From the NCBI GenBank assembly GCA_040954595.2, contig JBECUI020000027.1:310001-374000 (forward strand): a stretch of 64,000 nt of DNA, read 5' to 3'. This DNA is from Balanoglossus misakiensis. Its lineage: Eukaryota > Animalia > Hemichordata. The position numbers and the translations under genes are program-made. This document shows, in pieces, positions 70 through 55,094 of this stretch (the stretch's first letter is position 1; each line of letters opens with the position of its first letter). Below the pieces are notes generated by a model. That model had not been told where the DNA came from. It made no database searches and saw only the letters and a list, made by a program, of their open reading frames with translations.

Positions 70-767
70 GAAGTTCTGTACACCGTATGCAGATTTCTTC
101 TTACTGGAAGGAACTTCTGTACACCGTATGCAGATTCTTCTTACTGGAAAGGAAATTCTATACACCGTATGCAGATTCTTCTTACTGGAAAGGAAGTTCT
201 GTACTCCATATGCAGATTCTTCTTACCGGAAGGAACTTCTGTACACCGTATGCAGATTCTTCTTATTGGAAGGAACTTCTGTACTCCATATGCAGATTCT
301 TCTTACTGGAAAGGAAATTCTATACACCGTATGCAGATTCTTCTTACTGGAAAGGAAATTCTATACACCATATGAAGATTCTTCTTATTGGAAGGAACTT
401 TCTGTACTCCATATGCAGATTCTTCTTACTGGAAAGGAAATTCTATACACCGTATGCAGATTCTTCTTACTGGAAAGGAAATTCTATACACCATATGAAG
501 ATTCTTCTTATTGGAAGGAACTTCTGTACACCGTATGCAGATTCTTCTTACTGGAAAGGAAGTTCTGTACACCGTATGCAGATTCTTCTTACTGGAAAGG
601 AAGTTCTGTACACCGTATGCAGATTCTTCTTACTGGAAAGGAAGTTCTGTACACCGTATGCAGATTCTTCTTACTGAGAAAGAAAATTCTTCTACACCAT
701 ACACCGTATGCAGATTCTTCTTATCGAAAAGGAACTTCTTCTACACCGTATGCAGATTCTTCTTACT
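70..767. repeat. Tandem repeat, ~17 copies of a 40-41 bp unit (TACACCGTATGCAGATTCTTCTTACTGGAAAGGAAGTTCTG)
   Basis: Core CAGATTCTTCTTA recurs at about 90, 131, 172, 213, 253, 293, 334, 375, 416, 457, 498, 538, 579, 620, 661, 711 and 753. Confidence 0.95.
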
Positions 768-851
768 GAAAAGGATTACTCCCCTATTGAAAAGGATTAC
801 TCCCCTATTGAGAAGGTTTACTCCCCTATTGAGAAGGTTTACTCCCCGGTT
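768..851. repeat. Four tandem 21-bp repeats (GARAAGGWTTACTCCCCTATT)
   Basis: Directly visible immediately after the 41-bp array; the last copy is degenerate. Confidence 0.9.
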
Positions 852-928
852 ACCCTGGCCTTTAGTCAGGTGAGTTTAGTGGGATGGAATGTGTTAGGGA
901 TACGGAGGGTGAGGGCAGGGCCCTCAGA

Positions 929-1006
929 TCTCCGCCGTAGGCGGAGAGCCGGAGCGAAGCGTAGCCCAGAGCAGCCCGACCCCCGCCGATAGGCGGGGGG
1001 AACACC
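929..1006. repeat. GC-rich double-hairpin REP-like element
   Basis: Inverted repeats CTCCGCC-GTA-GGCGGAG and CCCCCGCC-GATA-GGCGGGGG; a similar element lies at ~11170-11240. Confidence 0.5.
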
Positions 1007-1076
1007 CTTATTCATAATATAAGCTTGGGAAAAGGAATTTCTGGTATTTCTCTTTGTTAACTGCTATAGTGTTTTT

Positions 1077-4028: not shown

Positions 4029-4070
4029 TGAATTGATCAAAAATAGTCGTTTTTTTTTATATTTTCATCA

Positions 4071-5478
<1,408 letters not shown>

Positions 5479-6368: not shown

Positions 6369-7592
6369 ATGTCTTCCTTCAGTGTTTATTCTGAAATTGG
6401 AGTTCTCAAGCAGATTCTGCTTCATCGACCTGGAAGGGAATTGGAAATTCTAACACCGCAGTACCTGGAGGAACTTCTTTTTGACGATATTCCCTGGGTG
6501 AACCGCATTCAAGATGAACACGACAGATTTGCCGAGACTCTCAGAGATAGGGGCTGTGAGGTTTTCTATTATAGTGAACTTCTGGAGGATATTCTTCAGG
6601 ACGATGGGGTGCGGAAAGAGTTAATCAACGCCGTTTTAACCCGTAGTCGCATCCCTGATGAGCGATTAAAGGACGATATCTGTCAACTTTTTGAAGTGTA
6701 TTCGGAACAAAAACTGGCGGAAGTTCTCATAAGCGGCCTCCGAAAGGAAGAAATTCCCCACACAGAGGAGGAAAAGCGCCTCTCTTACTATATTAAAACT
6801 GATTTTCCCTATTATATAAATCCACTTCCTAATTTCTACTTTACCAGGGATCCAGGAGCCATGATAGGCGATGGTATGGCGGTTCATGCCATGAAAACCA
6901 CTGCCCGCTCCCGGGAAACACTTATTTTAGAATATATTGTGAGGAATCATCCTCTTTTTAAGGAGACTGCAAAGAAAATCTGGTACACCCCAAAGGATGA
7001 GGACAGCCTTGAAGGGGGGGATATCCTCGTTCTGAGTCCTCATGTGCTGGCCATAGGCTGCAGTGCCCGAACCAGCAGCGAAGGCATAGAGAAACTTGCC
7101 GGGCGTCTGCTCCGAGGAGAAACAAGTATCCGGGAAGTTGTGGTCATTCAGATACCTAATACCCGAGCTTACATGCATTTAGACACGGTATTCACCATGG
7201 TGGATCGGGATAAGTTTACTATTTTCCCAGGGATTGCAGAGAGCATCAAGGTTTTCCGCCTGACTCCGGGTAAGGGAGAAAATCTCCGTATTGAATCCAT
7301 GGAAAACCTGGTTAGGGCCCTGAAAGATTCCCTGAATCTTTCTGCCATCGAGCTAATACAAAGCGGCGGCGATGATAGGTTTACAGCAGCCCGAGAACAG
7401 TGGAATGACAGCACCAATACCTTAGCTCTGGCCCCTGGAGTTGTTGTGACCTACAAAAGAAATGTCCATTCCAATGACGCCCTACGCCACCATGGTATTG
7501 AGGTTGTGGCCATAGAGGGTTCCGAACTAGTACGAGGCCGGGGAGGCCCCCGCTGTATGAGCATGCCTTTAAATAGATTGCCCATGAATTGA
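6369..7592 (+). CDS. arcA: Arginine deiminase
   Basis: 407 aa; VYSEIG, LLFDDIP, FTRD, EGGD, MHLDTVFTMVD, EQWNDSTN and GRGGPRCMSMPL motifs. Confidence 0.97.
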   Translation: MSSFSVYSEIGVLKQILLHRPGRELEILTPQYLEELLFDDIPWVNRIQDEHDRFAETLRDRGCEVFYYSELLEDILQDDGVRKELINAVLTRSRIPDERLKDDICQLFEVYSEQKLAEVLISGLRKEEIPHTEEEKRLSYYIKTDFPYYINPLPNFYFTRDPGAMIGDGMAVHAMKTTARSRETLILEYIVRNHPLFKETAKKIWYTPKDEDSLEGGDILVLSPHVLAIGCSARTSSEGIEKLAGRLLRGETSIREVVVIQIPNTRAYMHLDTVFTMVDRDKFTIFPGIAESIKVFRLTPGKGENLRIESMENLVRALKDSLNLSAIELIQSGGDDRFTAAREQWNDSTNTLALAPGVVVTYKRNVHSNDALRHHGIEVVAIEGSELVRGRGGPRCMSMPLNRLPMN

Positions 7593-8747: not shown

Positions 8748-9219
8748 GTTCCAATACCATATACCAATTACCTAATTACTGAAACTTAAACCTTCCCATG
8801 AATTTTTTGCCGTCTGTGAAGTTCCAATACCATATACCAATTACCTAATTACTGAAACTTATCAAAACCTCTTATAGCAACAACACTTTCATGTTCCAAT
8901 ACCATATACCAATTACCTAATTACTGAAACTGGGAGACAAGATAGTTGATACAATCTTGTCTTGTGTTCCAATACCATATACCAATTACCTAATTACTGA
9001 AACCTTATAGAAAATGCGTCCTTTGGTGACTATTCTGGTTCCAATACCATATACCAATTACCTAATTACTGAAACAGCCACGGCTGTAGTCAAGATATAA
9101 CGATTCGTGTTCCAATACCATATACCAATTACCTAATTACTGAAACTGTCGCACAGCGGGAGACTGGACTCTCTTACATCGGTTCCAATACCATATACCA
9201 ATTACCTAATTACTGAATC
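8748..9219 (+). CRISPR. CRISPR array 1: 7 repeats of 38 bp (GTTCCAATACCATATACCAATTACCTAATTACTGAAAC), 6 spacers of 33-35 bp
   Basis: Repeats start at 8748, 8821, 8893, 8966, 9038, 9109 and 9182; the last ends GAATC; spacers are unique; no cas genes in the window. Confidence 0.97.
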
Positions 9220-9746
9220 CATCTGCGCAATCTGCGGATTCTTCCTAAACAATAACAATCCCAGATAAATAAATTCTCAAAATAAGACCAATTCTTTATA
9301 ATGCTGTTATGAAGTTGAACACCCATCACCAGGCATGCTTCCAGAAGAACTGGGCAATTCCAGTAAGGAAGCAAAACGAATGGGAGCATGTTCAGCCATG
9401 CTGGAAAGGATAGAAGTTATGGCGCTCATGCCAAAAACTCAGCAAATGACGGTTTCCTTAAGAACGGAAACTCAAGCCGCAGCCTCAGAGGAGAACATTT
9501 TTTCCCTTAAAGAAAGAAAACCCTTGAAGAGGAAACAAAAGCTTCCTTCCAAAAATAAGAAATACCAAACGCAGAAAGCCCCCTCACCATACCCAGGTGC
9601 TTACAAGTTAAATAATGCAGGTGCTCTCTCCATCCAACCCTTTTTTTCGCAAAATACCAAGGTTTTTGAACAATCCAACCATTTTCGAAAAAAAAGCGGT
9701 ACGGCCCCAACACGAATTCCTTATTTTATAAAGAATAAGTGTTGGG
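9220..9746 (+). repeat. CRISPR trailer+leader block, copy 2
   Basis: Near-identical to 8230-8747. Confidence 0.85.
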
Positions 9747-29499: not shown

Positions 29500-29566
29500 G
29501 AAAGTTAAGTTCAAATCTAGTAAACTAAAGCCTTGTAAGAGGCTATTTTTAAGGAGGCATACAAGG

Positions 29567-35623: not shown

Positions 35624-36069
35624 TCTTTGTCTCGGCAGGGGATGTGCCGTTCTCATGCTGGGACAGCTGCCAGGAATGCCATGAAGAAAGAAAAGAAAGG
35701 CTCCCCTTGGGGCCCAAATGATGACTTTTCAGTAACTTCCAGGCCTAAGCAGTCCCTCGGGGGCTAGAGGGAGTAAAAACGATAAGAAGAATCTGCTTAC
35801 TGGTACCCCCAAAGCCCTAGGACAGGCTCTCGGGGTGTGCCCGCCCCCAGATGCCCGGAAAACCCTAGCCAGCACCCTAATCTCCCTATGATTCCTATGC
35901 TTTTCCTCGGTTACTAACCAAGAACAGACCATTTCACCCCCTTACCAAACAATAAAGAGATAACACCCCCCCCTTGATAAAATCCAGATAAGGAGATAAA
36001 CTGAAAGTTAAGTTCAAATCTAGTAAACTAAAGCCTTGTAAGAGGCTATTTTTAAGGAGGCATACAAAG

Positions 36070-37261: not shown

Positions 37262-37708
37262 TCTTTGTCTCGGCAGGGGATGTGCCGTTCTCATGCTGGG
37301 ACGGCTGCCAAGAATGCCATGGAGAAAGAAAAGAAAGGCTCCCCTTGGGGCCCCCATGATGACTTTGCAGTAACTTTCCTGGCCCAATCACTCCCTCGGG
37401 GACTAGAGGACGTAAAAACGATAAGAAGAATCTGCTTACTGGTACCCCCAAAGCCCTAGAATAGGCTTTCGGGGTGTGCCCGCTCCCCGATGCCCGGGAA
37501 ACCCTAGCCAGCACCCTAATTCCCTATGGCTACTACGCTTTTTCTCAAGTTATTGACCAAGAAAAGATCATTTCACCCCCTTACTAACCAATAAAGAGAT
37601 AACACCCCCCCCTTGATAAAATCCAGATAAGGAGATAAACTGAAAGTTAAGTTCAAATCTAGTAAACCAAAGCCTTGTAAGAGGCTATTTTTAAGGAGGC
37701 ATACAAAG

Positions 37709-38880
37709 ATGATCAGCAATTTAAGGAAACTCACTCACTCACTCACTCACTCACTCACTCACTCACTCACTCACTCACTCACTCACTCACCAACTCTTGC
37801 GCGCTAGAACTCCAAAGAAAGCCTAATTCCCTTCGCCGTTTTTCCCCGTTAAAAGCAATACTTTTCTGTTTAATCCCAGCGCTGTTCCTGACAGGCTGCG
37901 GCCCCACCGGTCCAAGTCGAGAAACCCTCATAACAACTTTGACCATCAACGGCCTGGAGGGAGTGGCAACAATTGATGAAACCAAAGCCGTTTTTTCTTT
38001 TGATAAACTAGACTCCAGCACGGTAAGCACCTTTGACCTCAGCGTATCCCCCGGGGCCACGGTTACCCATGCCGACGGTACCGCTCTGACAGCTGAAAAT
38101 CTTCTTATCGGCGAGGAATTCCCCGTGCTCGTTACTGCAGAAGATGGACTTACTACCCAAACCTACACCCTATTAATTACCGGGGATATTCTGATTACCA
38201 ACAAATACAGCAACGGCTACTATGTCTGGTTTGACCTAACCTTGCATCAAAATGCTACGGTGGATTTCTACGCAGTAGAAGAAGGAACGACCCTGCCCAG
38301 CGCCGATTCCGTGGCGGCCATGGATGACACCGATGGCGACCAGGACATCGACGGTCAACACTTCAGAGATGACTTGGTTGCCGGGGAACCCCACCGTATT
38401 GTTCTCTACAACCTGGACACCTCCAAAAACTACGATATTGGCAGCTATTTCAACGATGGTAAGTATCCCGGCTCTCACGCCGCTGTATTGACACAGATGA
38501 CTACAGCCGCAGAACCCAGCACTACCGGCAAGGTGGTTTGGCAGGCTTACGAAGGGCAGCGAATCATTCTGCCGCCTGCAAGGTTGTTGTCAAATAACGA
38601 TCTATCTGGAGCTAAAACGCACATGTTTTACGTACGGACAACTGTGCCAGCAGGGGCTATATATGAAATATTTTCAGATACCTATCAGATTGCCTTTAAT
38701 TACGACGCAGCTATTCATCAGACTATAGAGGTTATTATTGCTCCTCTGGGATATTATTTCATAAATTTTAAAGATGTTATGAAATCACAAGAAGGCATAT
38801 ATTGGGTTCGATGGACGGCAAAAGCTGACGATACCGATTCCCCCGATGACTATATTGATTTGCGCATCATAGAAAGGTAG
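37709..38880 (+). CDS. Variable lipoprotein copy 11, phase OFF ((CTCA)15)
   Basis: Distance 230 nt; downstream ORF intact. Confidence 0.88.
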
Positions 38881-39318
38881 TCTTTGTCTCGGCAGGGGAT
38901 GTGCCGTTCTCATGCTGGGACGGCTGCCAAGAATGCCATGCAGAAAGAAAAGAAAGACTCCCCTGGGGGCCCCCATGATGACTTTGCAGTAACTTTCCTG
39001 GCCCAATCACTCCCTCGGGGACTAGAGGGCGTAAAAACGATAAGAAGAACCTGCTTACTGGTACCCCCAAAGCCCTAGAATAGGCTTTCGGGGTGTGCCC
39101 GCTTCCAGATGCCCGGGAAACCCTAGCCAGAACCCTAATTCCCTATGGCTACTACGCTTTTTCTCAAGTTATTGACCAAATTTCTCCCCTTACCAAACAA
39201 TAAAGAGATAACACCTCCCCCCTTGATAAAATCCAGATAAGGAGATAGACTGAAAGTTAAGTTCAAATTTAGTAAACTAAAGCCTTGTAAGAGGCTATTT
39301 TTAAGGAGGCATACAAGG

Positions 39319-40517
39319 ATGATCAGCAATTTAAGGAAACTCACTCACTCACTCACTCACTCACTCACTCACTCACTCACTCACTCACTCACTCACTCAC
39401 TCACTCACTCACCAACTCTTGCGCGCTAGAACTCCAAAGAAAGCCTAGTTCCCTTCGCCGTTTTTCCCCGTTAAAAGCAATACTTTTTTGTTTACTCCTA
39501 GCACTTTTCCTGACAAGCTGCGGCCCCACCGGTCCAAGTCGAGAAACCCTCATAACAACTTTGACCATCAACGGCCTGGAGGGAGTGGCAACAGTTGATG
39601 AAACCAAAGCCGTTTTTTCTTTTGATAAACTAGACTCAGGTGCGGTAAGCACCTTTGACCTCAGCGTATCCCCCGGGGCCACGGTTACCCATGCCGACGG
39701 TACCGCTCTGACAGCTGAAAATCTTCTTATCGGCGAGGAATTCCCCGTGCTCGTTACCGCAGAGGATGGGCTTACTACCCAAACCTACACCCTGTTAATT
39801 ACCGGGGATATTCTCATTACCAACAAGTACAGCAACGGCTACTATGTCTGGTTTGACCTAACCTTGCATCAAAATGCTACGGTGGATTTCTACGCAGTAG
39901 AAGAAGGAACGACCCTGCCCAGCGCCGATTCCGTGGCGGCCATGGATGACACCGATGGCGACCAGGCCGTTGACGGTCGGCACTTCAGAGATGACTTGGT
40001 TGCCGGGGAACCCCACCGTATTGTTCTCTACAACTTGGACACCTCCAAAAACTACGATATTGGCGGCTATTTCAACGATGGTAAGTATCCCGGCTCTCAC
40101 GCCGCTGTATTGACACAGATGACTACAGCCGCAGAACCCAGCACTACGGGTAAGGTGGTTTGGCCGGCTTACGAAGGGCAGCGAATCATTCTGCCGCCTG
40201 CAAGGTTGATGTCAAGGAATGATCTTGCTGGAACATCCGAAACTCATGGTCTTTACGTACGAAAAACTACAGCAGAGGGAGAGGAAGTCATCTACAATTT
40301 ATATCTTATGTTTTCAGACAGTACTTATACGATCGGCTCTGATTACAACCAAGCTATTCATCAGACTATAGAGGTTATTTTTGATCCTCTGGGATATTAT
40401 TTCATAAATTTTACAGATGTTATGAAATCACAAGAAGGCATATATTGGGTTCGATGGGCGGAAGAAGATACCGATTTCCCCGATGACTATATTGATTTGC
40501 GCATCATAGAAAGGTAG
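39319..40517 (+). CDS. Variable lipoprotein copy 12, phase OFF ((CTCA)18)
   Basis: Distance 242 nt; LTSC lipobox; mature protein identical to copy 18. Confidence 0.88.
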
Positions 40518-40965
40518 TCTTTGTCTCGGCAGGGGATGTGCCGTTCTCATGCTGGGACGGCTGCCAGGAATGCCATGGAGAAAGAAAAGAAAGGCTCCCG
40601 TTGGGGCCAAAATGATGACTTTTCAGCAACCTCTAGGCCTGGGCAGTCCCTCGGAGACTAGAGGGAATAAAAACGATAAGAAGAATCTGCTTACTGGTAC
40701 CCCCAAAGCCCTAGAATAGGCTTTCGGGGTGTGCCCGCTCCCAGATGCCCGGGAAACCCTAGCCAGAACCCTAATTCCCTATGGCTACTACGCTTTTTCT
40801 CAAGTTATTGACCAAAGAACAGACCATTTCACCCCCTTACCAAACAATAAAGAGATAACACCCCCCCCCTTGATAAAATCCAGATAGCGAGATAGACTGA
40901 AAGTTAAGTTCAAATCTAGTAAACCAAAGCCTTGTAAGAGGCTATTTTTAAGGAGGCATACAAAG

Positions 40966-42124
40966 ATGATCAGCAATTTAAGGAAACTCACTCACTCACT
41001 CACTCACTCACTCACTCACTCACTCACTCACTCACTCACTCACCAACTCTTGCGCGCTAGAACTCCAAAGAAAGCCTAATTCCCTTCGCCGTTTTCCCCC
41101 GTTAAAAGCAATACTTTTCTGTTTAATCCCAGCGCTGTTCCTGACAGGCTGCGGCCCCACCGGTCCAAGTCGAGAAACCCTCATAACAACTTTGACCATC
41201 AACGGCCTGGAGGGAGTGGCAACAGTTGATGAAACCAAAGCCGTTTTTTCTTTTGATAAACTAGACTCAGGTGCGGTAAGCACCTTTGACCTCAGCGTAT
41301 CACCCGGGGCCACGGTTACCCATGCCGACGGTACCGCTCTGACGGCTGAAAATCTTGTTATTGGCGAGGAATTCCCCGTGATCGTTACTGCAGAGGATGG
41401 ACTTACTACCCAAACCTACACCCTGTTAATTACCGGGGATATGCTCATTACCAACAAATACAGCAACGGCTACTACGTCTGGTTTGACCTAACCTTGCAT
41501 CAAAATGCTACGGTGGATTTCTACGCAGTAGAAGAAGGAACGACCCTGCCCAGCGCTGCTTCCGTAGCGGCCATGGATGACACCGATGGCGACCAGGCCG
41601 TCGACGGTCGGCACTTCAAAGATGACTTGGTTGCCGGGGAACCCCACCGTATTGTTCTCTACAACTTGGACACCTCCAAAAACTACGATATTGGCAGCTA
41701 TTTCAACGATGGTAAGTATCCCGACTCTCACGCCGCTGTATTGACACAAATGACTACAGCCGCAGAACCCAGCACTACGGGCAAGGTGATTTGGCAGGCT
41801 TACGAAGGGCAGCGAATCATTCTGCCGCCTGCAAGGTTGTTGTCAAATAACGATCTATCTTCACCTGTATCGCACACACTTACTGTGGCAGGGAAATACA
41901 AGTCTGTATTAGAAATTATTCCAAATACCTATCAAGTTGGTACTAGTCACGACGCAACTGTTCATCAGACTATAGAGGTTATTATTGCTCCTATGGGATA
42001 TTATTTCCTTAATTTTACAGATGCTATGAAATCACAAGAAGGCATACATTGGGTTCGAATAACGACGGTAAGTGCCGATATCATCCCCGATGACTATATT
42101 GATTTGCGCATCATAGAAAGGTAG
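40966..42124 (+). CDS. Variable lipoprotein copy 13, phase OFF ((CTCA)14)
   Basis: Distance 226 nt; shortest and among the most divergent C-termini. Confidence 0.88.
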
Positions 42125-42573
42125 TCTTTGTCTCGGCAGGGGATGTGCCGTTCTCATGCTGGGACGGCTGCCAAGGATGCCATGAAGAAAGAAAAGAAAG
42201 GCTCCCCTTGGGGCCCAAATGATGACTTTTCAGTAACTTCCAGGCCCAATCACTCCCTCGGGGACTAGAGGGAGTAAAAACGATAAGAAGAATCTGCTTA
42301 CTGGTACCCCCCAAAGCCCTAGAATAGGCTTTCGGGGTGTGCCCGCTCCCCGATGCCCGGGAAACCCTAGCCAGCACCCTAATTCCCTATGGCTACTACG
42401 CTTTTTCTCAAGTTACTAACCAAGAACAGACCATTTCACCCCCTTACCAAACAATAAAGAGATAACACCCCCCCCCCTTGATAAAATCCAGATAAGGAGA
42501 TAAACTGAAAGTTAAGTTCAAATCTAGTAAACCAAAGCCTTGTAAGAGGCTATTTTTAAGGAGGCATACAAAG

Positions 42574-43757
42574 ATGATCAGCAATTTAAGGAAACTCACT
42601 CACTCACTCACTCACTCACTCACTCACTCACTCACTCACTCACCAACTCTTGCGCGCTAGGACTTCAAAGAAAGCCTAATTCCCTTCGCCGTTTTTCCCC
42701 GTTAAAAGCAATGCTTTTCTGTTTAATCCCAGCGCTATTCCTGGCAGGCTGCGGCAGCCCCACTCCGAGCAGTGAAGCCCTCATAACAACTTTGACCATC
42801 AACGGCCTGGAGGGAGTGGCAACAATTGATGAAACCAAAGCCGTTTTTTCTTTTGATAAACTAGACTCAGGTGCGGTGACCGCCTTTGACCTCAGCGTAT
42901 CCCCCGGGGCCACGGTTACCCATGCCGACGGTACCGCTCTGACGGCTGAGAATCTTGTTATCGGCGAGGAATTCCCCGTGCTCGTTACAGCAGAGGATGG
43001 ACTTACTACCCAAACCTACACCTTATTGATTACCGGGGATATTCTCATTACCAATAAATACAGCAACGGCTACTACGTCTGGTTTGACCTAACCTTGCAT
43101 CAAAACGCTACGGTGGATTTCTACGCAGTAGAAGAAGGAACGACCCTGCCCAGCGCCGATTCCGTGGCGGCTATGGATGACACCGATGGGGACCAGGCCG
43201 TTGACGGTCAACACTTCAGAGATGCCTTGGTTGCCGGGGAACCCCACCGTATTGTTCTCTACAACTTGGACACCTCCAAAAACTACGATATTGGCAGCTA
43301 TTTCAGTGATGCTAAGTATCCCGACTCTCACGCCGCTGTATTGACACAGATGACTACAGCCGCAGAACCCAGCACCACGGGCAAGGTGGTTTGGCAGGCT
43401 TACGAAGGGCAGCGAATTATTCTGCCGCCTGCAAGGTTGTTGTCAAATAACGATATACCTGCTGGAACAACCAAAACTCAGTCTCTTTTCGCACGAAAAA
43501 CTACAGCAGAGGGAGAGGAAGTCATCTACCATTTATATTTTCTGTTTTCAGGTAATATTTATTCGTTCGGCTCTAATTACAACCCAGCTATTTATCATAC
43601 CGTAGAGATTATTATTGCTCCTCTGGGATATTATTTCATAAATTTTACAGATGTTATGAAATCACAAGGAGGTATATATTGGGTTCGATGGACGGAAGAA
43701 GCTGACGATACCGATTCCCCCGATGACTATATTGATTTGCGCATCATAGAAAGGTAG
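42574..43757 (+). CDS. Variable lipoprotein copy 14, tract OFF ((CTCA)12) but with an internal in-frame ATG at 42711
   Basis: Distance 218 nt; an ATA>ATG change yields MLFCLIPALFLAG-C. Confidence 0.85.
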
Positions 43758-43831
43758 TCTTTGTCTCGGCAGGGGATGTGCCGTTCTCATGCTGGGACGG
43801 CTGCCAAGGATGCCATGAAGAAAGAAAAGAA

Positions 43832-45182
43832 GGTAGTGTCAAGAATTTTGCGCACTTTCAAATCTCCAATGTTGAAAGAGCCTAACTTACATCTTGCCTT
43901 ATCGCTTCAAGTAAGTCCATATTCAAATACTTTTCTGTACTCCATTTTGTTCCCATGATGTACCTGAGCCTGGCAGCTGATAGCATAAGGGCCGAATCCC
44001 CATCGGGGAAATGTTCTGCAACTTTGGTTCTGCGTTTGATTTCTTTCATGATTCTTTCAAGAGGATTATTAGTCCTGATCCGAATCCAATGTTCCTGAGG
44101 GAAATACATATGCTCAAGAGTTTCGTGGATATAGTTTTTCACCATGTTAGCAGCCTTGGGAAGTTTCATATTGCGGAGTTTCGTTTCAATCAGTTGAGCC
44201 TTCTCAAGAGCAGCATCACGATCTTCTTGCGCATGAATTGCCTTCAACATTGCTGCAACTTCACGGACCTTCTCACGGGGAACTACTGAGAATACATTCC
44301 GGTAATAGTGAACAACGCATCGTTGCCATCGTGCTTTAGGGAAAAACTCTTCGATGGATTCGATCAATCCGATGCATTTGTCGCTTATGAAGAGCTGAGT
44401 ATCCTTAAGCCCTCGATTTTTCAAGTGTGCAAGGAAGTTGCTCCATCCAGCTTTATCTTCCTTTTCACCTTCAACAACACCTAAAACACTACGATATCCG
44501 CTTTCTGAGACGCCTATCGCTACCAGAATGCTCACATTTCGCACTTCTCCAGCCCATGAGCGCTTAAGGATTGTCCCATCCAGATACACATAAGGAAAGT
44601 TCTCCTTGATGGGTTGATTCCGCCAAGTATTGATTCTCACGTAGAGATCCTGGTTCAAATTGCTCATTGTCCCAGGGCTGACCTTGGTTCCCCAAAGGGC
44701 CTCGGTAATATCTTTAACTCGGCGCACTGAAACACCAGCTAAATACATTTCAACTAAGGCTTCTTCAACGGATGTTTCCCGGCGTTTATAACGCTCAATA
44801 ATTGCTGTTTCGAATGGAAGCTTTCTTAGCTTTGGAATTTTCAAGTTAACTCTTCCAGCAGCGATATCCAACTTCCTAGTGTAATGTCCAGCACGAGTAT
44901 CTTTTCGTGCATCCGTACGCTCGTATTTTTCAGCCTGAAGTAAAAAATCTACCTCTGCATTGAGCATGGCATTCAAGGTTCCCTCTACGGTTGTTTTAAC
45001 CATTTGGCTTAACTTGCTCTGTACAAGACCTTCATCGATCTGTATGATCTTTCCCGTGGGGTCTTTTTCTGACCTCATTTTGTCCTCCGTGTGAATGGTT
45101 TTACATTCGATTCCATTTCAACATTGGAGGACATTTTTTTTCAATGCCTTTTTAGAATGTGCGCAAAATTCTTGACACTACC
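43832..45182 (-). mobile_element. IS256-family insertion sequence, 1351 bp
   Basis: Perfect 24-bp terminal inverted repeats GGTAGTGTCAAGAATTTTGCGCAC; 8-bp target duplication GAAAAGAA (43824-43831 and 45183-45190). Confidence 0.97.
43882..45078 (-). CDS. IS256-family (mutator-type) DDE transposase
   Basis: 398 aa; EMYLAGVSVR, YVYLDG, FISD, WQRCVVH and IRTNNPLER motifs. Confidence 0.96.
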   Translation of the reverse strand: MRSEKDPTGKIIQIDEGLVQSKLSQMVKTTVEGTLNAMLNAEVDFLLQAEKYERTDARKDTRAGHYTRKLDIAAGRVNLKIPKLRKLPFETAIIERYKRRETSVEEALVEMYLAGVSVRRVKDITEALWGTKVSPGTMSNLNQDLYVRINTWRNQPIKENFPYVYLDGTILKRSWAGEVRNVSILVAIGVSESGYRSVLGVVEGEKEDKAGWSNFLAHLKNRGLKDTQLFISDKCIGLIESIEEFFPKARWQRCVVHYYRNVFSVVPREKVREVAAMLKAIHAQEDRDAALEKAQLIETKLRNMKLPKAANMVKNYIHETLEHMYFPQEHWIRIRTNNPLERIMKEIKRRTKVAEHFPDGDSALMLSAARLRYIMGTKWSTEKYLNMDLLEAIRQDVS

Positions 45183-45562
45183 GAAAAGAAAGGCTCCCCT
45201 TGGGGCCCAAATGATGACTTTTCAGTAACTTCCAGGCCCAATCACTCCCTCGGGGACTAGAGGGAGTAAAAACGATAAGAAGAATCTGCTTACTGGTACC
45301 CCCAAAGCCCTAGAATAGGCTTTCGGGGTGTGCCCGCTCCCCGATGCCCGGGAAACCCTAGCCAGCACCCTAATTCCCTATGGCTACTACGCTTTTTCTC
45401 AAGTTACTAACCAAGAAAAGATCATTTCACCCCCTTACCAAACAATAAAGAGATAACACCCCCCCCTTGATAAAATCCAGATAAGGAGATAAACTGAAAG
45501 TTAAGTTCAAATCTAGTAAACCAAAGCCTTGTAAGAGGCTATTTTTAAGGAGGCATACAAAG

Positions 45563-46727
45563 ATGATCAGCAATTTAAGGAAACTCACTCACTCACTCAC
45601 TCACTCACTCACTCACTCACTCACTCACCAGCTCTTGCGCGCTAGAACTCCAAAGAAAGCCTAATTCCCTTCGCCGTTTTTCCCCGTTAAAAGCAATACT
45701 TTTCTGTTTAATCCTAGCGCTGTTCCTGACAGGCTGCGGCCCCACCGGTCCAAGTCGAGAAACCCTCATAACAACTTTGACCATCAACGGCCTGGAGGGA
45801 GTGGCAACAATTGATGAAACCAAAGCCGTTTTTTCTTTTGATAAACTAGACTCCAGCACGGTAAGCACCTTTGACCTCAGCGTATCCCCCGGGGCCACGG
45901 TGACCCATGCCGACGGTACCGCTCTGACAGCTGAAAATCTTCTTATCGGCGAGGAATTCCCCGTGCTCGTTACTGCAGAGGATGGACTTACTACCCAAAC
46001 CTACACCCTGTTAATTACCGGGGATATGCTCATTACCAACAAATACAGCAACGGCTACTACGTCTGGTTTGACCTAACCTTGCATCAAAACGCTACGGTG
46101 GATTTCTACGCAGTAGAAGAAGGCACTACCCTACCCAGTGCCGATTCCGTGGCGGCCATGGATGACACCGATGGCGACCAGGCCGTCGACGGTCGGCACT
46201 TCAGAGATGCCTTGATTGCCGGGGAACCCCACCGTATTGTTCTGTACAACCTGGACACCTCCAAAAACTACGATATTGGCGGCTATTTCAACGATGGTAA
46301 GTATCCCGGCTCTCACGCCGCTGTTTTGACACAGATGACTACAGCCGCAGAACCCAGCACTACAGGTAAGGTGGTTTGGCAGGCTTACGAAGGGCAGCGA
46401 ATTATTTTGCCGCCTGCAAGGTTATTGTCAAGGAATGATCTTGCTGGAACAAACAGAACTCATTCTCTTTTCGTAAAAGAAACTACGGGAGAGAGTAGAA
46501 GGATTGTATATGTAATCACTCCAGGTTCCTATCAATTGGGCAATCACTACGATGCTTCTATACATCAGACTATAAAGCTTATTTTTGCTCCTATGGGATA
46601 TTATTTCGTAAACTTTGAGGATGTTATGAAATCACAAGAAGGCATATATTGGGTTCGATGGACGCTTACAGATCAGGATACCAATTCCCCCGATGACTAT
46701 ATTGATTTGCGCATCATAGAAAGGTAG
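45563..46727 (+). CDS. Variable lipoprotein copy 15, phase OFF ((CTCA)11)
   Basis: Distance 214 nt; downstream ORF intact. Confidence 0.88.
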
Positions 46728-47178
46728 TTTTTGTCTCGGCAGGGGATGTGCCGTTCTCATGCTGGGACGGCTGCCAAGAATGCCATGAAGAAAGAAAAGA
46801 AAGGCTCCCCTTGGGGCCCAAATGATGACTTTCCAGCAACTTCTAGGCCTAAGCAGTCCCTCGGGGACTAGAGGGAGTAAAAACGATAAGAAGAATCTGC
46901 TTACTCCCCACCCCTGAAGGCCCTAGGGCAGGCTTTCTGGGGACTGCCCGCTCCCAGATGCCTTGAAAACCTTAGCCAGCACCCTAATTCCCTATGGCTA
47001 CTACGCTTTTTCTCAAGTTATTGACCAAAGAACAGACCATTTCTCCCCTTACCAAACAATAAAGAGATAACACCCCCCCCCCTTGATAAAATCCAGATAG
47101 CGAGATAGACTGAAAGTTAAGTTCAAATCTAGTAAACTAAAGCCTTGTAAGAGGCTATTTTTAAGGAGGCATACAAAG

Positions 47179-48380
47179 ATGATCAGAAATTTAAGGAAAC
47201 TCACTCACTCACTCACTCACTCACTCACTCACTCACTCACTCACTCACTCACTCACTCACCCACTCACTCACCAACTCTTGCGCGCTAGAACTCCAAAGA
47301 AAGCCTAATTCCCTTCGCCGTTTTTCCCCGTTAAAAGCAATACTTTTCTGTTTAATCCCAGCGCTGTTCCTGACAGGCTGCGGCAGCCCCACTCCGAGCA
47401 GTGAAGCCCTCATAACAACTTTGACCATCAACGGCCTGGAGGGAGTGGCAACAATTGATGAAACCAAAGCCGTTTTTTCTTTTGATAAACTAGACTCCAG
47501 TGCGGTAAGCACCTTTGACCTCAGCGTATCCCCCGGGGCCACGGTTACCCATGCCAACGGTACCGCTCTGACGGCTGAAAATCTTCTTATCGGCGAGGAG
47601 TTCCCCGTGCTCGTTACAGCAGAGGATGGACTTACTACCCAAACCTACACCCTGTTAATTACCGGGGATATTCTGATTACCAACAAATACAGCAACGGCT
47701 ACTATGTCTGGTTTGACCTAACCTTGCATCAAAATGCTACGGTGGATTTCTACGCAGTAGAAGAAGGCACTACCCTACCCAGCGCCGCTTCCGTTGCGGA
47801 CATGGATGACACCGATGGCGACCAGGCCGTCGACGGTCGGCACTTCAGAGATGACTTGGTTGCCGGGGAACCCCACCGTATTGTTCTGTACAACCTGGAC
47901 ACCTCCAAAAACTACGATATTGGCGGCTATTTCAGTGATGCTAAGTACCCTGGCTCTCACGCCACTGTATTGACACAGATGACTACAGCCGCAGAACCCA
48001 GCACTACGGGCAAGGTGGTTTGGCAGGCTTACGAAGGGCAGCGAATCATTCTGCCGCCTTCAAGGTTGTCGTCAAATAACGATCTATCTGGAAATGAAAC
48101 GCATAAACTTTCCGTACGGAGAACTGTGGCAGGGGTGGAGGAATACCTTATAACTGTATATGAAATCATTCCAGGAGGTCACTATCAATTTGGCTATGAT
48201 TACGATGCAGCTACTCATCAGACTATAGAGGTTATTATTGATCCTCTGGGATATTATTTCATAAATTTTACAGATGTTATGAAATCACAAGAAGGCCTAT
48301 ATTGGATTCGAGTGCCGGCAGAAGGGGACGATACCATTACCCCCGATGAATATATTGATTTGCGCATCATAGAAAGGTAG
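47179..48380 (+). CDS. Variable lipoprotein copy 16, phase OFF (18 units, one interrupted as CCCA)
   Basis: Distance 242 nt; downstream ORF intact. Confidence 0.88.
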
Positions 48381-48833
48381 TCTTTGTCTCGGCAGGGAAT
48401 GTGCCGTTCTCATGCTGGGACAGCTGCCAGGAATGCCATGGAGAAAGAAAAGAAAGGCTCCCCTGGGGGCCCCCATGATGACTTTGCAGTAACTTCCAGG
48501 CCCAATCACTCCCTCGGGAGCTAGAGGGAGTAAAAACGATAAGAAGAATCTGCTTAATGGTACCCCGAAAGCCCTAGAATAGGCTTTCGGGGTGTGCCCG
48601 CTCCCAGATGCCCGGGAAACCCTAGCCAGCACCCTAATTCCCTATAATTCCTATGCTTTTTTTCTCTCAAGTTATTGACCAAAGAACAGACCATTTCACC
48701 CCCTTACCAAACAATAAAGAGATAACACCCCCCCCCCTTGATAAAATCCAGATAAGGAGATAAACTGAAAGTTAAGTTCAAATCTAGTAAACTAAAGCCT
48801 TGTAAGAGGCTATTTTTAAGGAGGCATACAAAG

Positions 48834-50031
48834 ATGATCAGCAATTTAAGGAAACTCACTCACTCACTCACTCACTCACTCACTCACTCACTCACTCACT
48901 CACTCACTCACTCACTCACTCACCAACTCTTGCGCGCTAGAACTTCAAAGAAAGCCTAATTCCCTTCGCCGTTTTTCCCCGTTAAAAGCAATACTTTTCT
49001 GTTTAATCCCAGCGCTATTCCTGGCAGGCTGCGGCAGCCCCACTCCGAGCAGTGAAGCCCTCATAACAACTTTGACCATCAACGGCCTGGAGGGAGTGGC
49101 AACAATTGAGGGAACCAAAGCCGTTTTTTCTTTTGATAAACTAGACTCAGGTGCGGTGACCGCCTTTGACCTCAGCGTATCCCCCGGGGCCACGGTTACC
49201 CATGCCGACGGTACCGCTCTGACGGCTGAAAATCTTGTTATCGGCGAGGAATTCCCCGTGCTCGTTACCGCAGAGGATGGACTTACTACCCAAACCTACA
49301 CCCTGTTAATTACCGGGGATATTCTCATTACCAACAAATACAGCAACGGCTACTACGTCTGGTTTGACCTAACCTTGCATCAAAATGCTACGGTGGATTT
49401 CTACGCAGTAGAAGAAGGAACGACCCTGCCCAGCGCCACTTCCGTTTCGGCCATGGATGACACCGATGGCGACCAGGCCGTTGACGGTCGGCACTTCAGA
49501 GATGCCTTGATTGCTGGGGAACCCCACCGTATTGTTCTGTACAACCTGGACACCTCCAAAAACTACGATATTGGCAGCTATTTCAACGATGGTAAGTATC
49601 CCGGCTCTCACGCCGCTGTTTTGACACAGATGACTACAGCCGCAGAACCCAGCACTACAGGTAAGGTGGTTTGGCAGGCTTACGAAGGGCAGCGAATCAT
49701 TCTGCCGCCTGCAAGGTTGTTGTCAAATAACGATATACCTGCTGGAACAACCGAATCTCATTCTCTTCATGTGCAAAAAACTACGGCAGAGGGGGAGGTA
49801 GTCATTTCTCATATATTTTTAGTAACAAGTAGCTATCTTATCGGCGATGATTATGACGACATTATTCATCAGACTATAGAGGTTATTTTTTCTCCTCTGG
49901 GATATTATTTCATAAATTTTAAGGATGTTATGAAATCACAAGAAGGCATATATTGGGTTCGAAAGTCGGCAGCTGAGGACGATACCAATTCCCCCGATGA
50001 CTATATTGATTTGCGCATCATAGAAAGGTAG
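48834..50031 (+). CDS. Variable lipoprotein copy 17, phase OFF ((CTCA)17)
   Basis: Distance 238 nt; C-terminal half identical to copy 3. Confidence 0.88.
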
Positions 50032-50479
50032 TCTTTGTCTCGGCAGGGGAGGTGCCGTTCTCATGCTGGGACGGCTGCCAGGAATGCCATGGAGAAAGAA
50101 AAGAAAGGCTCCCCTAGGGGGGGCCCCATGATGACTTTGCAGTAACTTCCAGGCCCAATCACTCCCTCGGGGACTAGAGGACGTAAAAACGATAAGAAGA
50201 ATCTGCTTACTGGTACCCCCCAAGCCCTATAATAGGCTTTCGGGGTGTGCCCGCCCCCAGATGCCCGGAAAACCCTAGCCAGCACCCTAATCTCCCTATG
50301 ATTCCTATGCTTTTCCTCGGTTACTAACCAAGAACAGACCATTTCTCCCCTTACCAAACAATAAAGAGATAACACCTCCCCCCTTGATAAAATCCAGATA
50401 AGGAGATAGACTGAAAGTTAAGTTCAAATTTAGTAAACTAAAGCCTTGTAAGAGGCTATTTTTAAGGAGGCATACAAGG

Positions 50480-51654
50480 ATGATCAGCAATTTAAGGAAA
50501 CTCACTCACTCACTCACTCACTCACTCACTCACTCACTCACTCACTCACCAACTCTTGCGCGCTAGAACTCCAAAGAAAGCCTAGTTCCCTTCGCCGTTT
50601 TTCCCCGTTAAAAGCAATACTTTTTTGTTTACTCCTAGCACTTTTCCTGACAAGCTGCGGCCCCACCGGTCCAAGTCGAGAAACCCTCATAACAACTTTG
50701 ACCATCAACGGCCTGGAGGGAGTGGCAACAGTTGATGAAACCAAAGCCGTTTTTTCTTTTGATAAACTAGACTCAGGTGCGGTAAGCACCTTTGACCTCA
50801 GCGTATCCCCCGGGGCCACGGTTACCCATGCCGACGGTACCGCTCTGACAGCTGAAAATCTTCTTATCGGCGAGGAATTCCCCGTGCTCGTTACCGCAGA
50901 GGATGGGCTTACTACCCAAACCTACACCCTGTTAATTACCGGGGATATTCTCATTACCAACAAGTACAGCAACGGCTACTATGTCTGGTTTGACCTAACC
51001 TTGCATCAAAATGCTACGGTGGATTTCTACGCAGTAGAAGAAGGAACGACCCTGCCCAGCGCCGATTCCGTGGCGGCCATGGATGACACCGATGGCGACC
51101 AGGCCGTTGACGGTCGGCACTTCAGAGATGACTTGGTTGCCGGGGAACCCCACCGTATTGTTCTCTACAACTTGGACACCTCCAAAAACTACGATATTGG
51201 CGGCTATTTCAACGATGGTAAGTATCCCGGCTCTCACGCCGCTGTATTGACACAGATGACTACAGCCGCAGAACCCAGCACTACGGGTAAGGTGGTTTGG
51301 CCGGCTTACGAAGGGCAGCGAATCATTCTGCCGCCTGCAAGGTTGATGTCAAGGAATGATCTTGCTGGAACATCCGAAACTCATGGTCTTTACGTACGAA
51401 AAACTACAGCAGAGGGAGAGGAAGTCATCTACAATTTATATCTTATGTTTTCAGACAGTACTTATACGATCGGCTCTGATTACAACCAAGCTATTCATCA
51501 GACTATAGAGGTTATTTTTGATCCTCTGGGATATTATTTCATAAATTTTACAGATGTTATGAAATCACAAGAAGGCATATATTGGGTTCGATGGGCGGAA
51601 GAAGATACCGATTTCCCCGATGACTATATTGATTTGCGCATCATAGAAAGGTAG
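50480..51654 (+). CDS. Variable lipoprotein copy 18, phase OFF ((CTCA)12)
   Basis: Distance 218 nt; duplicate of copy 12. Confidence 0.88.
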
Positions 51655-52102
51655 TCTTTGTCTCGGCAGGGGATGTGCCGTTCTCATGCTGGGACGGCTG
51701 CCAGGAATGCCATGGAGAAAGAAAAGAAAGGCTCCCGTTGGGGCCAAAATGATGACTTTTCAGCAACCTCTAGGCCTGGGCAGTCCCTCGGAGACTAGAG
51801 GGAATAAAAACGATAAGAAGAATCTGCTTACTGGTACCCCCAAAGCCCTAGAATAGGCTTTCGGGGTGTGCCCGCTCCCAGATGCCCGGGAAACCCTAGC
51901 CAGAACCCTAATTCCCTATGGCTACTACGCTTTTTCTCAAGTTATTGACCAAAGAACAGACCATTTCACCCCCTTACCAAACAATAAAGAGATAACACCC
52001 CCCCCCTTGATAAAATCCAGATAGCGAGATAGACTGAAAGTTAAGTTCAAATCTAGTAAACCAAAGCCTTGTAAGAGGCTATTTTTAAGGAGGCATACAA
52101 AG

Positions 52103-53285
52103 ATGATCAGCAATTTAAGGAAACTCACTCACTCACTCACTCACTCACTCACTCACTCACTCACTCACTCACTCACTCACCAACTCTTGCGCGCTAGAAC
52201 TCCAAAGAAAGCCTAATTCCCTTCGCCGTTTTCCCCCGTTAAAAGCAATACTTTTCTGTTTAATCCCAGCGCTGTTCCTGACAGGCTGCGGCCCCACCGG
52301 TCCAAGTCGAGAAACCCTCATAACAACTTTGACCATCAACGGCCTGGAGGGAGTGGCAACAGTTGATGAAACCAAAGCCGTTTTTTCTTTTGATAAACTA
52401 GACTCAGGTGCGGTAAGCACCTTTGACCTCAGCGTATCACCCGGGGCCACGGTTACCCATGCCGACGGTACCGCTCTGACGGCTGAAAATCTTGTTATTG
52501 GCGAGGAATTCCCCGTGATCGTTACTGCAGAGGATGGACTTACTACCCAAACCTACACCCTGTTAATTACCGGGGATATGCTCATTACCAACAAATACAG
52601 CAACGGCTACTATGTCTGGTTTGACCTAACCTTGCATCAAAATGCTACGGTGGATTTCTACGCAGTAGAAGAAGGAACGACCCTGCCCAGCGCCGATTCC
52701 GTGGCGGCCATGGATGACACCGATGGGGACCAGGCCGTTGACGGACAACACTTCAGAGATGCCTTGGTTGCCGGGGAACCCCACCGTATTGTTCTCTATA
52801 ACTTAGACACTTCCAAAAACTACGATATTGGCAGCTATTTCAACGATGGTAAGTATCCCGGCTCTCACGCCGCTGTATTGACACAGATGACTACAGCCGC
52901 AGAACCCAGCACCACGGGCAAGGTGGTTTGGCAGGCTTATGAAGGGCAGCGAATTATTTTGCCGCCTGCAAGGTTATTGTCAAATAACGATCTATCTGGA
53001 GCTGAAACGCATAAACTTTCCGTACGGAGAACTGTGGCAGGGGTGGAGGAATACCTTGTATATGTATATGAACTCATTCCAGGTGCCTATCAATTGGGCG
53101 CTGATTACGACGCAGCTACTCATCAGACTATAGAGGTTATTTTTGATCCTCTGGGATATTATTTCATAAATTTTACAGATGTTATGAAATCACAAGAAGG
53201 CCTATATTGGATTCGAATGCCGGCAGAAGGAAAAAATCTCATTACCCCCGATGAATATATTGATTTGCGCATCATAGAAAGGTAG
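52103..53285 (+). CDS. Variable lipoprotein copy 19, phase OFF ((CTCA)14)
   Basis: Distance 226 nt; 5' part matches copy 13, 3' part resembles copy 16. Confidence 0.88.
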
Positions 53286-53725
53286 TCTTTGTCTCGGCAG
53301 GGGATGTGCCGTTCTCATGCTGGGACGGCTGCCAAGAATGCCATGGAGAAAGAAAAGAAAGACTCCCCTGGGGGCCCCCATGATGACTTTGCAGTAACTT
53401 CCAGCCCCAATCAGTCCCTCGGGGGCTAAGAGCTAGTAAACAAAACGATAAGAAGAATCTGCTTACTGATACCCCCAAAGCCCTAGGATAGGCTTTCGGG
53501 GTGTGCCCTCTCCCAGAGTTCCGGGAAACCTTAGCAAGCACCCTAATCTCCCTATGCTTTTCCTCGGTTACTGACCAAGAACAGACCATTTCTCCCCTTA
53601 CCAAACAATAAAGAGATAACACCCCCCCCTTGATAAAATCCAGATAAGGAGATAGACTGAAAGTTAAGTTCAAATCTAGTAAACTAAAGCCTTGTAAGAG
53701 GCTATTTTTAAGGAGGTATACAAAG

Positions 53726-54954
53726 ATGATCAGCAATTTAAGGAAACTCACTCACTCACTCACTCACTCACTCACTCACTCACTCACTCACTCACTCACT
53801 CACTCACTCACTCACTCACTCACTCACTCACTCACTCACTCACTCACTCACTCACCAACTCTTGCGCGTTAGGACTTCAAAGAAAGCCTAGTTCCCTTCG
53901 CCGTTTTTCCCCGTTAAAAGTAATACTTTTCTGTTTAATCCCAGCGCTGTTCCTGACAGGCTGCGGCCCCACCGGTCCAAGTCGAGAAACCCTCATAACA
54001 ACTTTGACCATCAACGGCCTGGAGGGAGTGGCAACAATTGATGAAACCAAAGCCGTTTTTTCTTTTGATAAACTAGACTCCAGCACGGTAAGCACCTTTG
54101 ACCTCAGCGTATCCCCCGGGGCCACGGTTACCCATGCCGACGGTACCGCTCTGACAGCTGAAAATCTTCTTATCGGCGAGGAATTCCCCGTGCTCGTTAC
54201 TGCAGAGGATGGACTTACTACCCAAACCTACACCCTATTAATTACCGGGGATATGCTCATTACCAACAAATACAGCAACGGCTACTATGTCTGGTTTGAC
54301 CTAACCTTGCATCAAAACGCTACGGTGGATTTCTACGCAGTAGAAGAAGGAACGACCCTGCCCAGCGCCGCTTCCGTGACGGCCATGGATGACACCGATG
54401 GCGACCAAGCCGTCGACGGTCAACACTTCAGAGATGCTTTGGTTGCCGGGGAACCCCACCGGATTGTTCTCTACAACCTGGACACCTCCAAAAACTACGA
54501 TATTGGCAGCTATTTCAACGATGGTAAGTATCCCGGCTCTCACGCCGCTGTATTGACACAGATGACTACAGCCGCAGAACCCAGCACCACGGGCAAGGTG
54601 GTTTGGCAGGCTTACGAAGGGCAGCGAATTATTCTGCCGCCTGCAAGGTTATTGTCAAATAACGATCTATCTGGAACTGATTCGCATAAACTTTCCGTAC
54701 GGAGAACTGTGGCAGGGGTGGAGGAAACCTTTGAATCTGTATATGAATTTCTTCCAGGTGCCTATCAGGTCGCCCCTCAGTACGACTCAGCTATTCATCA
54801 GACTATAGAGGTTATTTTTTCTCCTCTGGGATATTATTTCATAAATTTTACAGATGTTATGAAATCACAAGAAGGTATATATTGGGTTCGAATGACAACG
54901 GGAGGTACCGATTCCCCCGATGACTATATTGATTTGCGCATCATAGAAAGGTAG
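53726..54954 (+). CDS. Variable lipoprotein copy 20, phase OFF ((CTCA)27)
   Basis: Distance 278 nt; longest tract (53747-53854). Confidence 0.88.
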
Positions 54955-55094
54955 TCTTTGTCTCGGCAGGGGATGTACTGTTCTCATGCTGGGACAGCTG
55001 CTCAGTCCCTCGGGGACTAGAGGACGTAAAAACGATAAGAAGAATCTGCTTACTGGCACCCCGAAGGAGCATCAAATAATAGGTCAAGGTCGAA

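Follow-up and report, generated by a model that had tools for sequence, protein, structure and literature searches.

A 17-bp palindrome shared by a minisatellite and a lipoprotein gene array

We found one 17-bp imperfect palindrome both in a 41-bp minisatellite and in every spacer of a tandem lipoprotein gene array in the window, that is, the whole stretch of 64,000 nucleotides analyzed. The sharing of the 17-mer between minisatellite and array spacer exceeds chance (P ~2e-4 to 1e-3). With about even confidence, we interpret it as a lineage-specific REP-like palindrome that is common to both loci by descent and probably seeded the first duplication of the array. The minisatellite and its neighbors are as follows:

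64..775, + strand: minisatellite with a 41-bp unit; 17 units (17.2 copies) of 40/41 bp, with edge units of 42 and 50 bp
707..726, + strand: edge unit 16, the closest minisatellite match to the array site; 706-726 agrees at 20/21 bases, on the opposite strand
767..847, + strand: 21-bp tandem repeat (3.9 copies) that adjoins the minisatellite and lacks the 17-mer

The minisatellite unit is an imperfect inverted repeat in itself, with the 17-mer at its end. The sequence TATGCAGATTCTTCTTA is exact in 14 units and carries a C-to-A change in 2 (at 371 and 494), and unit 1 (86-103) has an additional T within the motif. The earlier note had placed the 17-mer in each unit, which holds for 16 of the 17, the exception being unit 1. 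Variable columns were scarcer in the 17-mer (1/17 versus 5/14, P = 0.05). The sites are spaced by 40/41 bp, or 3.8 to 3.9 helical turns, and the drift exceeds one full turn along the block; they are therefore not in helical phase. A coding function was ruled out by the mixture of 40- and 41-bp units, and the sole Pfam match was weak and under the cut-off. The adjoining 21-bp repeat appears to have arisen from the 41-bp unit by deletion.

The second locus is the lipoprotein array:

20517..55066, + strand: tandem array of 20 full lipoprotein genes and one 3' remnant; period of ~1.63 kb; 22 palindrome copies
20517..20634, + strand: left edge copy of the spacer element; array homology begins 5 bp ahead of the palindrome (20522-20538)
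22976..23004, + strand: sigma-70-like promoter match in one spacer (9/12; 1 found versus 0.5 expected in shuffles; consensus match only)
55031..55066, + strand: right edge copy; array homology stops 14 bp past the palindrome (55036-55052)

Each lipoprotein gene contains an (ACTC)n tract, and 1 of the 20 genes is in frame. The palindrome TAAGAAGAATCTGCTTA occurs in 22 copies at 20522-55052, all on the + strand. Twenty are exact and the others lie at 21164 and 39041, in agreement with the earlier report of one copy per spacer. Internal copies are situated ~160 bp 3' of the stop codon and 165 to 182 bp 5' of the predicted -35 box. The 34.5-kb array is bounded by a 36-bp direct repeat, as 20517-20552 and the right edge copy are identical at 34 of 36 bases. 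The first unit is degenerate and short (~640 bp), and the left boundary could represent erosion up to a functional site.

We then compared the two versions of the motif. The reverse complement of the array site agrees with the minisatellite 17-mer at 16/17 positions (15/17 in two units), as had been claimed, and 710-726 is indeed the exact complement of the spacer sequence CGATAAGAAGAATCTGC. The CTGG said to follow both versions is present after 9 of the 16 intact minisatellite motifs and after 17 of the 22 array sites. When 41-bp units were shuffled, a match with at most one mismatch arose in 1/5000 cases against one 444-bp spacer, in 0/3000 against the 1628-bp array unit, and in 4/300 against the 31-kb non-redundant window. 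Real background 17-mers matched the spacer in 0 of 290,522 cases and the whole array unit in 6 of 290,522. The evidence is one match between two tandemly duplicated families, not ~40 independent sites. Likeness beyond the 17-mer is limited to 1 of the 22 array copies, the left edge copy, in which 31 of 37 columns align alike with the reverse-complemented 41-bp unit; this extension score was reached in 4/150 permutations (best over all pairs), and the left flank was not significant. On the same strand, TCTKCTTACTGG forms the end of both families, which would be expected from an older, longer palindrome.

Conservation of the palindrome in the array

The 17-mer forms an 8-1-8 dyad, with 7/8 positions paired in the spacer version and 6/8 in the repeat version, and the sole substitution seen in the minisatellite 17-mer increases this symmetry. 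Its diversity in the array is low (pi of 0.012 versus 0.094). Elsewhere in the spacer, comparable conservation is confined to the promoter/RBS region and a block close to a GC hairpin, and divergent flank haplotypes end at the edges of the palindrome site. The 17-mer thus combines dyad symmetry with conservation above its flanks, as an operator would, to a modest degree (P = 0.05 in the minisatellite). This local conservation fits a protein-bound site and suggests a present-day constraint that a pure passenger would not need.

Two other possibilities were considered for the ~118 bp past the site. A structured RNA or attC-like hairpin made up of the site and these 118 bp was not supported: none of the 17 predicted pairs showed a two-sided, compensatory change among 19 copies, and Rfam gave no match. 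Membership of the 118 bp in the GC-rich repeat at 892-1010 (pairwise z of 4.7) was unsupported by profile searches and was rejected.

Distribution of the motif

Outside both expansions, no copy of the 17-mer with at most one mismatch was found in 29 kb of the window. One further site lies in a coding sequence:

6408..6422, + strand: perfect 15-bp palindrome that matches the motif core, within the arginine deiminase coding sequence (P ~0.1 for a match with at most two mismatches)

This palindrome is probably due to chance; it was not preserved in the 19 relatives in which the N terminus was read. Among spirochaetes, motif counts were at background level in a set of 5 genomes and in 38 genomes of the order, 151 of the class, and 401 of the phylum. 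Five high-count genomes were re-inspected and contained scattered single matches, those read lying mostly in ORFs. Metagenomes yielded 30 single motif matches, mostly in ORFs, and viral contigs yielded 0 and 13. The 41-bp unit had no match among phages and plasmids, and the repeat unit and spacer, used as DNA queries in the 38 genomes, produced only short weak matches; five of these, in one genome (G021), share a single context, read as an IS coding region. In contigs of the probable source run, neither the left edge element nor the minisatellite end had a copy whose flanks were clearly foreign, lone 17-mers being invisible in contigs. No lipoprotein homologue was found in the protein database or in GTDB contigs, and no Atlas match was informative; weak N-terminal matches were present in 2 of 5 relatives, and none of the database or genome searches yielded a full-length relative. 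The motif strings appeared in the literature only in papers on unrelated topics. The intergenic DNA of the genome contains further dispersed palindromic repeats that also occur in relatives.

The CRISPR trailers belong to another repeat family

The earlier note had proposed the sequences after the terminal CRISPR repeats as a third link. We do not retain it: the matches represent one duplicated sequence, occur at chance level, and form an arm of a different repeat family.

9219..9247, + strand: CRISPR trailer match; comprises flank and an arm of the GCAGATT-word (GxxExxY-associated) repeat; a second copy at ~9858-9886 and a shortened one at 8232-8248

The matches at 8232, 9231, and 9870 all fall within a single segment that has been duplicated (identity of 95.5% over 604 bp and 86% over 168 bp). 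The trailer is identical to the repeat version at 14/17 positions and to the spacer version at 13/17, and chance alone should give about one match to the degenerate consensus, at up to three mismatches, in 29 kb (mean 0.94 to 1.06). It fits the consensus of the GCAGATT family, which had 50 copies in 5 relatives and 0 in reversed controls. We defined this family by at least two tandem 9-base words ending in GCAGAT, dispersal in relatives, and the position of some copies beside GxxExxY remnants; the trailer has these features, and the fragment beside it matches TIGR04256 with an E value of 1e-6, under the curated cut-off. The 17-mer has one word per unit rather than two or more in tandem. The trailer match lies outside the 17-mer family. 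The CRISPR spacers had no match elsewhere in the window.

The two kinds of repeat are alike in arrangement. The GCAGATT repeats also form gene-less tandem arrays in relatives as well as one-per-unit copies in gene arrays: of the 30 copies of the arm in one relative (G004), 11 lie in a 175-bp tandem array that contains no ORF of 90 aa, and another relative (G001) has it once per unit of a four-gene tandem array. The end of the G001 array adjoins an IS-like fragment and is not a clean comparator. The minisatellite has one 10-base word in common with a variant of the GCAGATT family. Conversely, the word stands alone in the 17-mer instead of in a tandem of two or three, it is altered in the array version, and none of 5 relatives contained the minisatellite 13-mer. 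No description of the GCAGATT-word repeat was found in the literature searched.

A probable REP-like palindrome amplified twice

In the explanation that we prefer, the 17-mer would be the core of one small (~25 to 37 bp) lineage-specific palindromic repeat, inherited at both loci. One copy would have been amplified head-to-tail into the minisatellite through slippage, aided by the hairpin of the unit itself. An ancestral lipoprotein gene would have been flanked by two copies in direct orientation, which provided the junction for the first duplication, by template switch or recombination. Unequal crossing-over would then have enlarged the array, each unit carrying one palindrome copy, and the ~17 and 22 copies would be passengers of the two expansions. 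By REP/BIME criteria, the 17-mer is a short extragenic imperfect palindrome that is clustered (17 tandem units) and present once per array unit. REP-like families are defined by dispersal over the genome; within the window, the 17-mer was seen at two loci. REP/BIME-type repeats have a cognate RAYT transposase and a conserved 5' tetranucleotide; of the 59 window ORFs, 19 were scanned, and neither a RAYT transposase nor a recombinase was detected in these.

REP/BIME sequences are described as extragenic pseudo-palindromes of ~38 bp that are clustered and found at tandem-amplification junctions, with clusters bound by IHF, Pol I, and gyrase (excerpts of PMC3161906 and PMC3184786). REP sequences contained 16 of 40 amplification junctions in E. 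coli (PMC3161906). Like the enterobacterial elements, the palindrome is short, extragenic, clustered, and located at the array boundary, but its core is AT-rich, it has no sequence likeness, and its counts in relatives are at background. By analogy with REP clusters, a protein may bind it. A dedicated sponge is unnecessary to explain the observations. The earlier reading of the sites as a sponge or loading array is not upheld: the copy numbers are not independent evidence because two tandem expansions produced them, helical phase is lost, and the adjoining 21-bp repeat has no motif.

Alternative explanations

An unlikely alternative is that the palindrome is a putative operator for a dimeric DNA-binding protein at the lipoprotein promoters, acting from ~175 bp upstream through looping or as a roadblock to read-through, with the minisatellite as an amplified operator that may titrate the protein. 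The TetR protein encoded in the window (12692-13258) is one candidate regulator. The dyad, the substitution that raises its symmetry, the scarcity of equally conserved spacer parts, and the haplotype boundaries at the site all point that way. However, gene conversion alone is able to homogenize short blocks, helical phase is lost in the minisatellite, and the window contains no second regulon member save the chance-level arginine deiminase match. Counts in relatives are at background, and in 8 relatives the region ahead of the orthologous PPDK-like gene was read and lacked the motif, although their proteins are only 40 to 58% identical. A further elaboration is very unlikely: that the minisatellite serves as a decoy array, tunable in length, that captures a regulator or recombinase binding one site per phase-variable lipoprotein gene 20 to 54 kb away, the VNTR serving as a trans rheostat on the expression or shuffling of surface antigens. 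No precedent for a bacterial VNTR decoy was found in a narrow literature search. It is hardly probable at all that the minisatellite is transcribed into an antisense or sponge RNA against the spacers. RNA from its + strand would have 16 to 20 bases of complementarity to read-through RNA from the + strand of the array, and two units fold stably (z = -4.0), but no sigma-70-like promoter was found in 1-1150 (0 versus 2.6 expected), the target lies 5' of the predicted lipoprotein promoter and so is probably not in the mRNA, and Rfam gave no match for the minisatellite or the site region. A sponge or antisense role specifically is unsupported by the present results.

The 36-bp boundary element could also be a site-specific recombination site or crossover signal, similar to the DHS of Borrelia hermsii, that adds, removes, or shuffles units, the minisatellite consisting of empty sites. 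We regard this as quite unlikely. The arrangement is as expected, since every unit and each array end has one element and all elements point the same way, and the site shows only baseline linkage between its two sides (r2 of 0.04 to 0.07, versus 0.42 and 0.17 over equal short distances elsewhere); yet other invariant gaps show equally low linkage (0.025 to 0.057 in four of 30 gaps, versus 0.052 at the site), no recombinase was present among the 19 ORFs scanned, and the 1-bp center is unlike the 6- to 8-bp spacer of tyrosine-recombinase sites. We give little credence to the view that the two 17-mers are alike by chance or word bias and were paired merely by the reader's search. The comparison is a single independent one, picked after the fact, 4/300 shuffles matched somewhere, and the lipoprotein coding sequence also contains a 15/16 look-alike of the minisatellite motif; against this stand the low probability for spacer or unit and the coincidence of the match with a conserved island, a palindrome, and the array boundary. 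A genome-wide chromosome-organizing or uptake motif (parS-, matS-, or DUS-like), also raised earlier, is extremely unlikely: the motif is palindromic and of suitable length, but it has no copy within one mismatch in the 29 kb outside the expansions, is not enriched in spirochaete genomes at any level, and the high-count genomes checked contain mostly single coding matches.

Comparison with other surface-antigen loci

The B. hermsii DHS is a 214-bp element with a 31-bp inverted repeat, which takes part in gene conversion from promoterless genes into one expression site (PMC6011951). Both cases concern a spirochaete and an extragenic inverted-repeat element beside variable lipoprotein genes. The array genes here differ in that each has promoter-like sequence and a frameshifting tract, and no special crossover was detected at the site. 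In Mycoplasma gallisepticum vlhA clusters, GAA tracts affect transcription; these clusters likewise comprise homologous surface-protein genes, each of which has a simple repeat, and additional conserved motifs lie upstream (PMC5138195). In contrast, (ACTC)n shifts the reading frame here, and a remote tandem copy of a motif is not described for vlhA in those parts of the source.

Among the features of the window, the array, in which a single gene of the 20 is in frame, is probably more striking than the palindrome. Should the decoy exist, it would add a new layer of contingency control, in which a non-coding repeat titrates for a distant gene family. If the preferred REP-like explanation is true, a small palindromic repeat marks the junction at which an antigen-like array of 20 genes originated; as REP-type junctions are already known, this would be useful but unsurprising.

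The 17-mer in the minisatellite and the lipoprotein array

We compared a 17-bp palindrome in a minisatellite near the left end of the window with its counterpart in the spacers of the lipoprotein gene array.

64-775: 41-bp tandem repeat, 17 units

The sequence TATGCAGATTCTTCTTA is exact in 14 of the 17 units and has a C-to-A variant in two; the first has an extra T, and the motif is thus not intact in every unit. Twenty complete lipoprotein genes, which bear (ACTC)n tracts, and a single 3' remnant make up the array. Its spacer 17-mer is present in 22 copies between 20522 and 55052, all on the + strand and 20 of them exact. As described earlier, the two versions match at 16/17 positions, bases 710-726 are a perfect complement of the spacer 17-mer, and CTGG frequently follows the motif (9/16 minisatellite and 17/22 array copies).

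Since both families are tandem expansions, the link between them is a single comparison. Shuffled units reached one mismatch or fewer in 1/5,000 cases against the spacer, 0/3,000 against the array unit, and 4/300 against the non-redundant window. Of 290,522 17-mers taken from real DNA as background, none had a match in the spacer and 6 had one in the whole unit. We consider the link real (P ~1e-3), for a comparison picked after the fact and with the caution that a 15/16 look-alike of the minisatellite repeat also lies within lipoprotein coding sequence; a chance likeness is improbable.

Twenty tandem lipoprotein genes (21445-54954) carry an (ACTC)8-27 tract right behind each start codon, and the gene at 29567, with 13 repeats, is the sole one in frame (P = 0.003 for at most 1 of 20 at one third). 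The lipoproteins, for which no full-length relative was found, have a near-constant N-terminal half, a variable C-terminal part, and mosaic haplotypes. An IS256/Mutator-family element (43832-45182) with an 8-bp target duplication is inserted within one spacer. When window positions 20950-21100 were compared with contigs of runs X1 and X2, array-like loose ends without a letter-for-letter match in the window were seen; they suggest further gene variants in the sample or population, and one X2 loose end, starting at GATC, could be a ligation junction. At 14091-20042 (divergent from the array, with a 441-bp internal repeat) and 61217-63931 lie the genes of two large surface proteins with BspA-type leucine-rich repeats.

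Conservation and array boundary

In the 20 internal spacers, diversity was 0.012 over the 17-mer versus 0.094 overall, in an alignment whose first 70 columns are inflated by one IS-interrupted row. Nine percent of the 17-column spacer windows are as conserved, those listed lying in the promoter and ribosome-binding region. Across 13 regular minisatellite units, 1/17 motif columns varied, compared to 5/14 neighboring ones (P = 0.05). Internal array sites lie ~160 bp past a stop codon and 165-182 bp ahead of a -35-like box.

Array similarity starts 5 bp ahead of the first palindrome and stops 14 bp past the last, which the earlier note had not remarked, and the two edge copies are identical at 34/36 bases; thus, a direct repeat containing the site bounds the array. 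The left edge copy and a reversed minisatellite unit are alike in 31 of 37 aligned columns. The extension past the 17-mer was equaled in 4/150 permutations and is present in 1/22 array copies; on the other flank, the extension was not significant in the permutation test. TCTKCTTACTGG ends both families on the same strand, a hint that the palindrome was once longer, ~25 bp.

CRISPR trailers

The CRISPR trailers, previously grouped with these sites, do not belong with them: the three matches lie in one duplicated segment, and about one such match is expected per 29 kb. The trailer sequence is AATCTGCG(C/T)AATCTGCGG, a motif with 22 copies in 5/38 related genomes and none in reversed controls. 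With a looser pattern, 50 copies turned up in 5 genomes, and the trailer agrees with their consensus. In one relative, at the sole locus checked, a copy adjoins a GxxExxY fragment, which scores below the cut-off for TIGR04256 (E 1e-6). A search of the openly accessible literature yielded no published description of GxxExxY-linked repeats and no relevant paper for the motif strings. The CRISPR array (8193-9900) is split by a duplicated ~600-bp trailer-plus-leader segment into 1, 7, and 2 repeats; no cas genes were found among the scanned window ORFs, and its spacers matched nothing elsewhere in the window.

Host and related genomes

Judged by sequence, the window DNA belongs to an uncultured spirochaete. 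For its PPDK-like protein (1077-4028), the best relatives show ~60% identity, and those top matches that carry names are Spirochaetales/Spirochaetaceae. The closest genomes reached (G001-G004, G030, G034, and G035) are distant relatives, since identity is 56-58% for this protein and 64-74% for arginine deiminase. A GC-rich dispersed palindromic element (892-1010 and 11155-11240) also occurs in 7/38 related genomes, at 75-76% over ~115 bp in G001 and G004.

Spirochaete genomes, in sets of 38, 151, and 401, had the motif at background level. The top counts (10 and 8, where controls reached at most 6) consisted of single matches in scattered places, those read lying mostly within ORFs; metagenome and viral scans gave nothing beyond single matches. 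Neither minisatellite nor spacer had a relative among the 38 genomes. A comparable design is seen at two loci with another repeat, the GCAGATT arm of the GxxExxY-associated family.

L163 (G004), 1193-3056: gene-less GCAGATT-arm tandem array, eleven units
L116 (G001:C1:152000-164000): four near-identical tandem genes, ~1.3-kb period, one GCAGATT arm each

In G004, the arm is both dispersed and arrayed, in 165-175-bp units without ORFs; in G001, each unit of the four-gene array, which we take by motif to encode an Rpn-like nuclease, has one. Thus, in this clade an ordinary dispersed repeat can yield a motif common to a gene-less block and gene-array units.

Origin of the shared palindrome

We give about even chances to the 17-mer being a lineage-specific REP-like palindrome, common to both loci by descent. 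Slippage would have amplified one copy into the minisatellite; two direct copies would have provided the junction at which the lipoprotein gene was first duplicated, and unequal crossing-over would then have grown the array. The data show the match, its place at the array boundary, and its conservation; the descent, the dispersal over the genome, and the succession of events we infer. Counting against a REP-like palindrome, the site looks constrained today. In E. coli, 16/40 amplification junctions lie within REP sequences, according to PMC3161906, and PMC3184786 describes REP clusters bound by IHF, Pol I, and gyrase. PMC7661048 has Shyamala et al. 1990 among its references.

The constraint could also be that of a putative operator, with or without decoy function, which we regard as possible and clearly less probable. 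The minisatellite spacing is 3.8-3.9 helical turns, and phase drifts out along the block. The 21-bp repeat adjoining the minisatellite lacks the motif. The arginine deiminase gene has a perfect 15-bp version of the motif 39 bp in, but a match this good has P ~0.1, and its codons are not preserved in the relatives' loci whose N-terminus was read (19/20). In the boldest reading, which is unlikely, the minisatellite would be a VNTR decoy that adjusts the antigen array in trans. A dedicated recombination site, which would be analogous to the B. hermsii DHS (PMC6011951), is likewise unlikely. Linkage across the site between variants on either side was at baseline (18 units; first two, last, and IS-interrupted sites excluded); because it is equally low over several other invariant gaps, no special crossover is shown there. 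A GC hairpin within the 118 bp 3' of the site had no compensatory changes (0/17 pairs, 19 copies). The minisatellite as an antisense RNA source is very improbable: we found no sigma-70-like promoter in 1-1150, and no Rfam family matched in the window. We hold a genome-wide organizing motif to be equally remote, given background-level counts in the spirochaete genomes. A palindromic lineage-specific repeat at an amplification junction is a kind already known.
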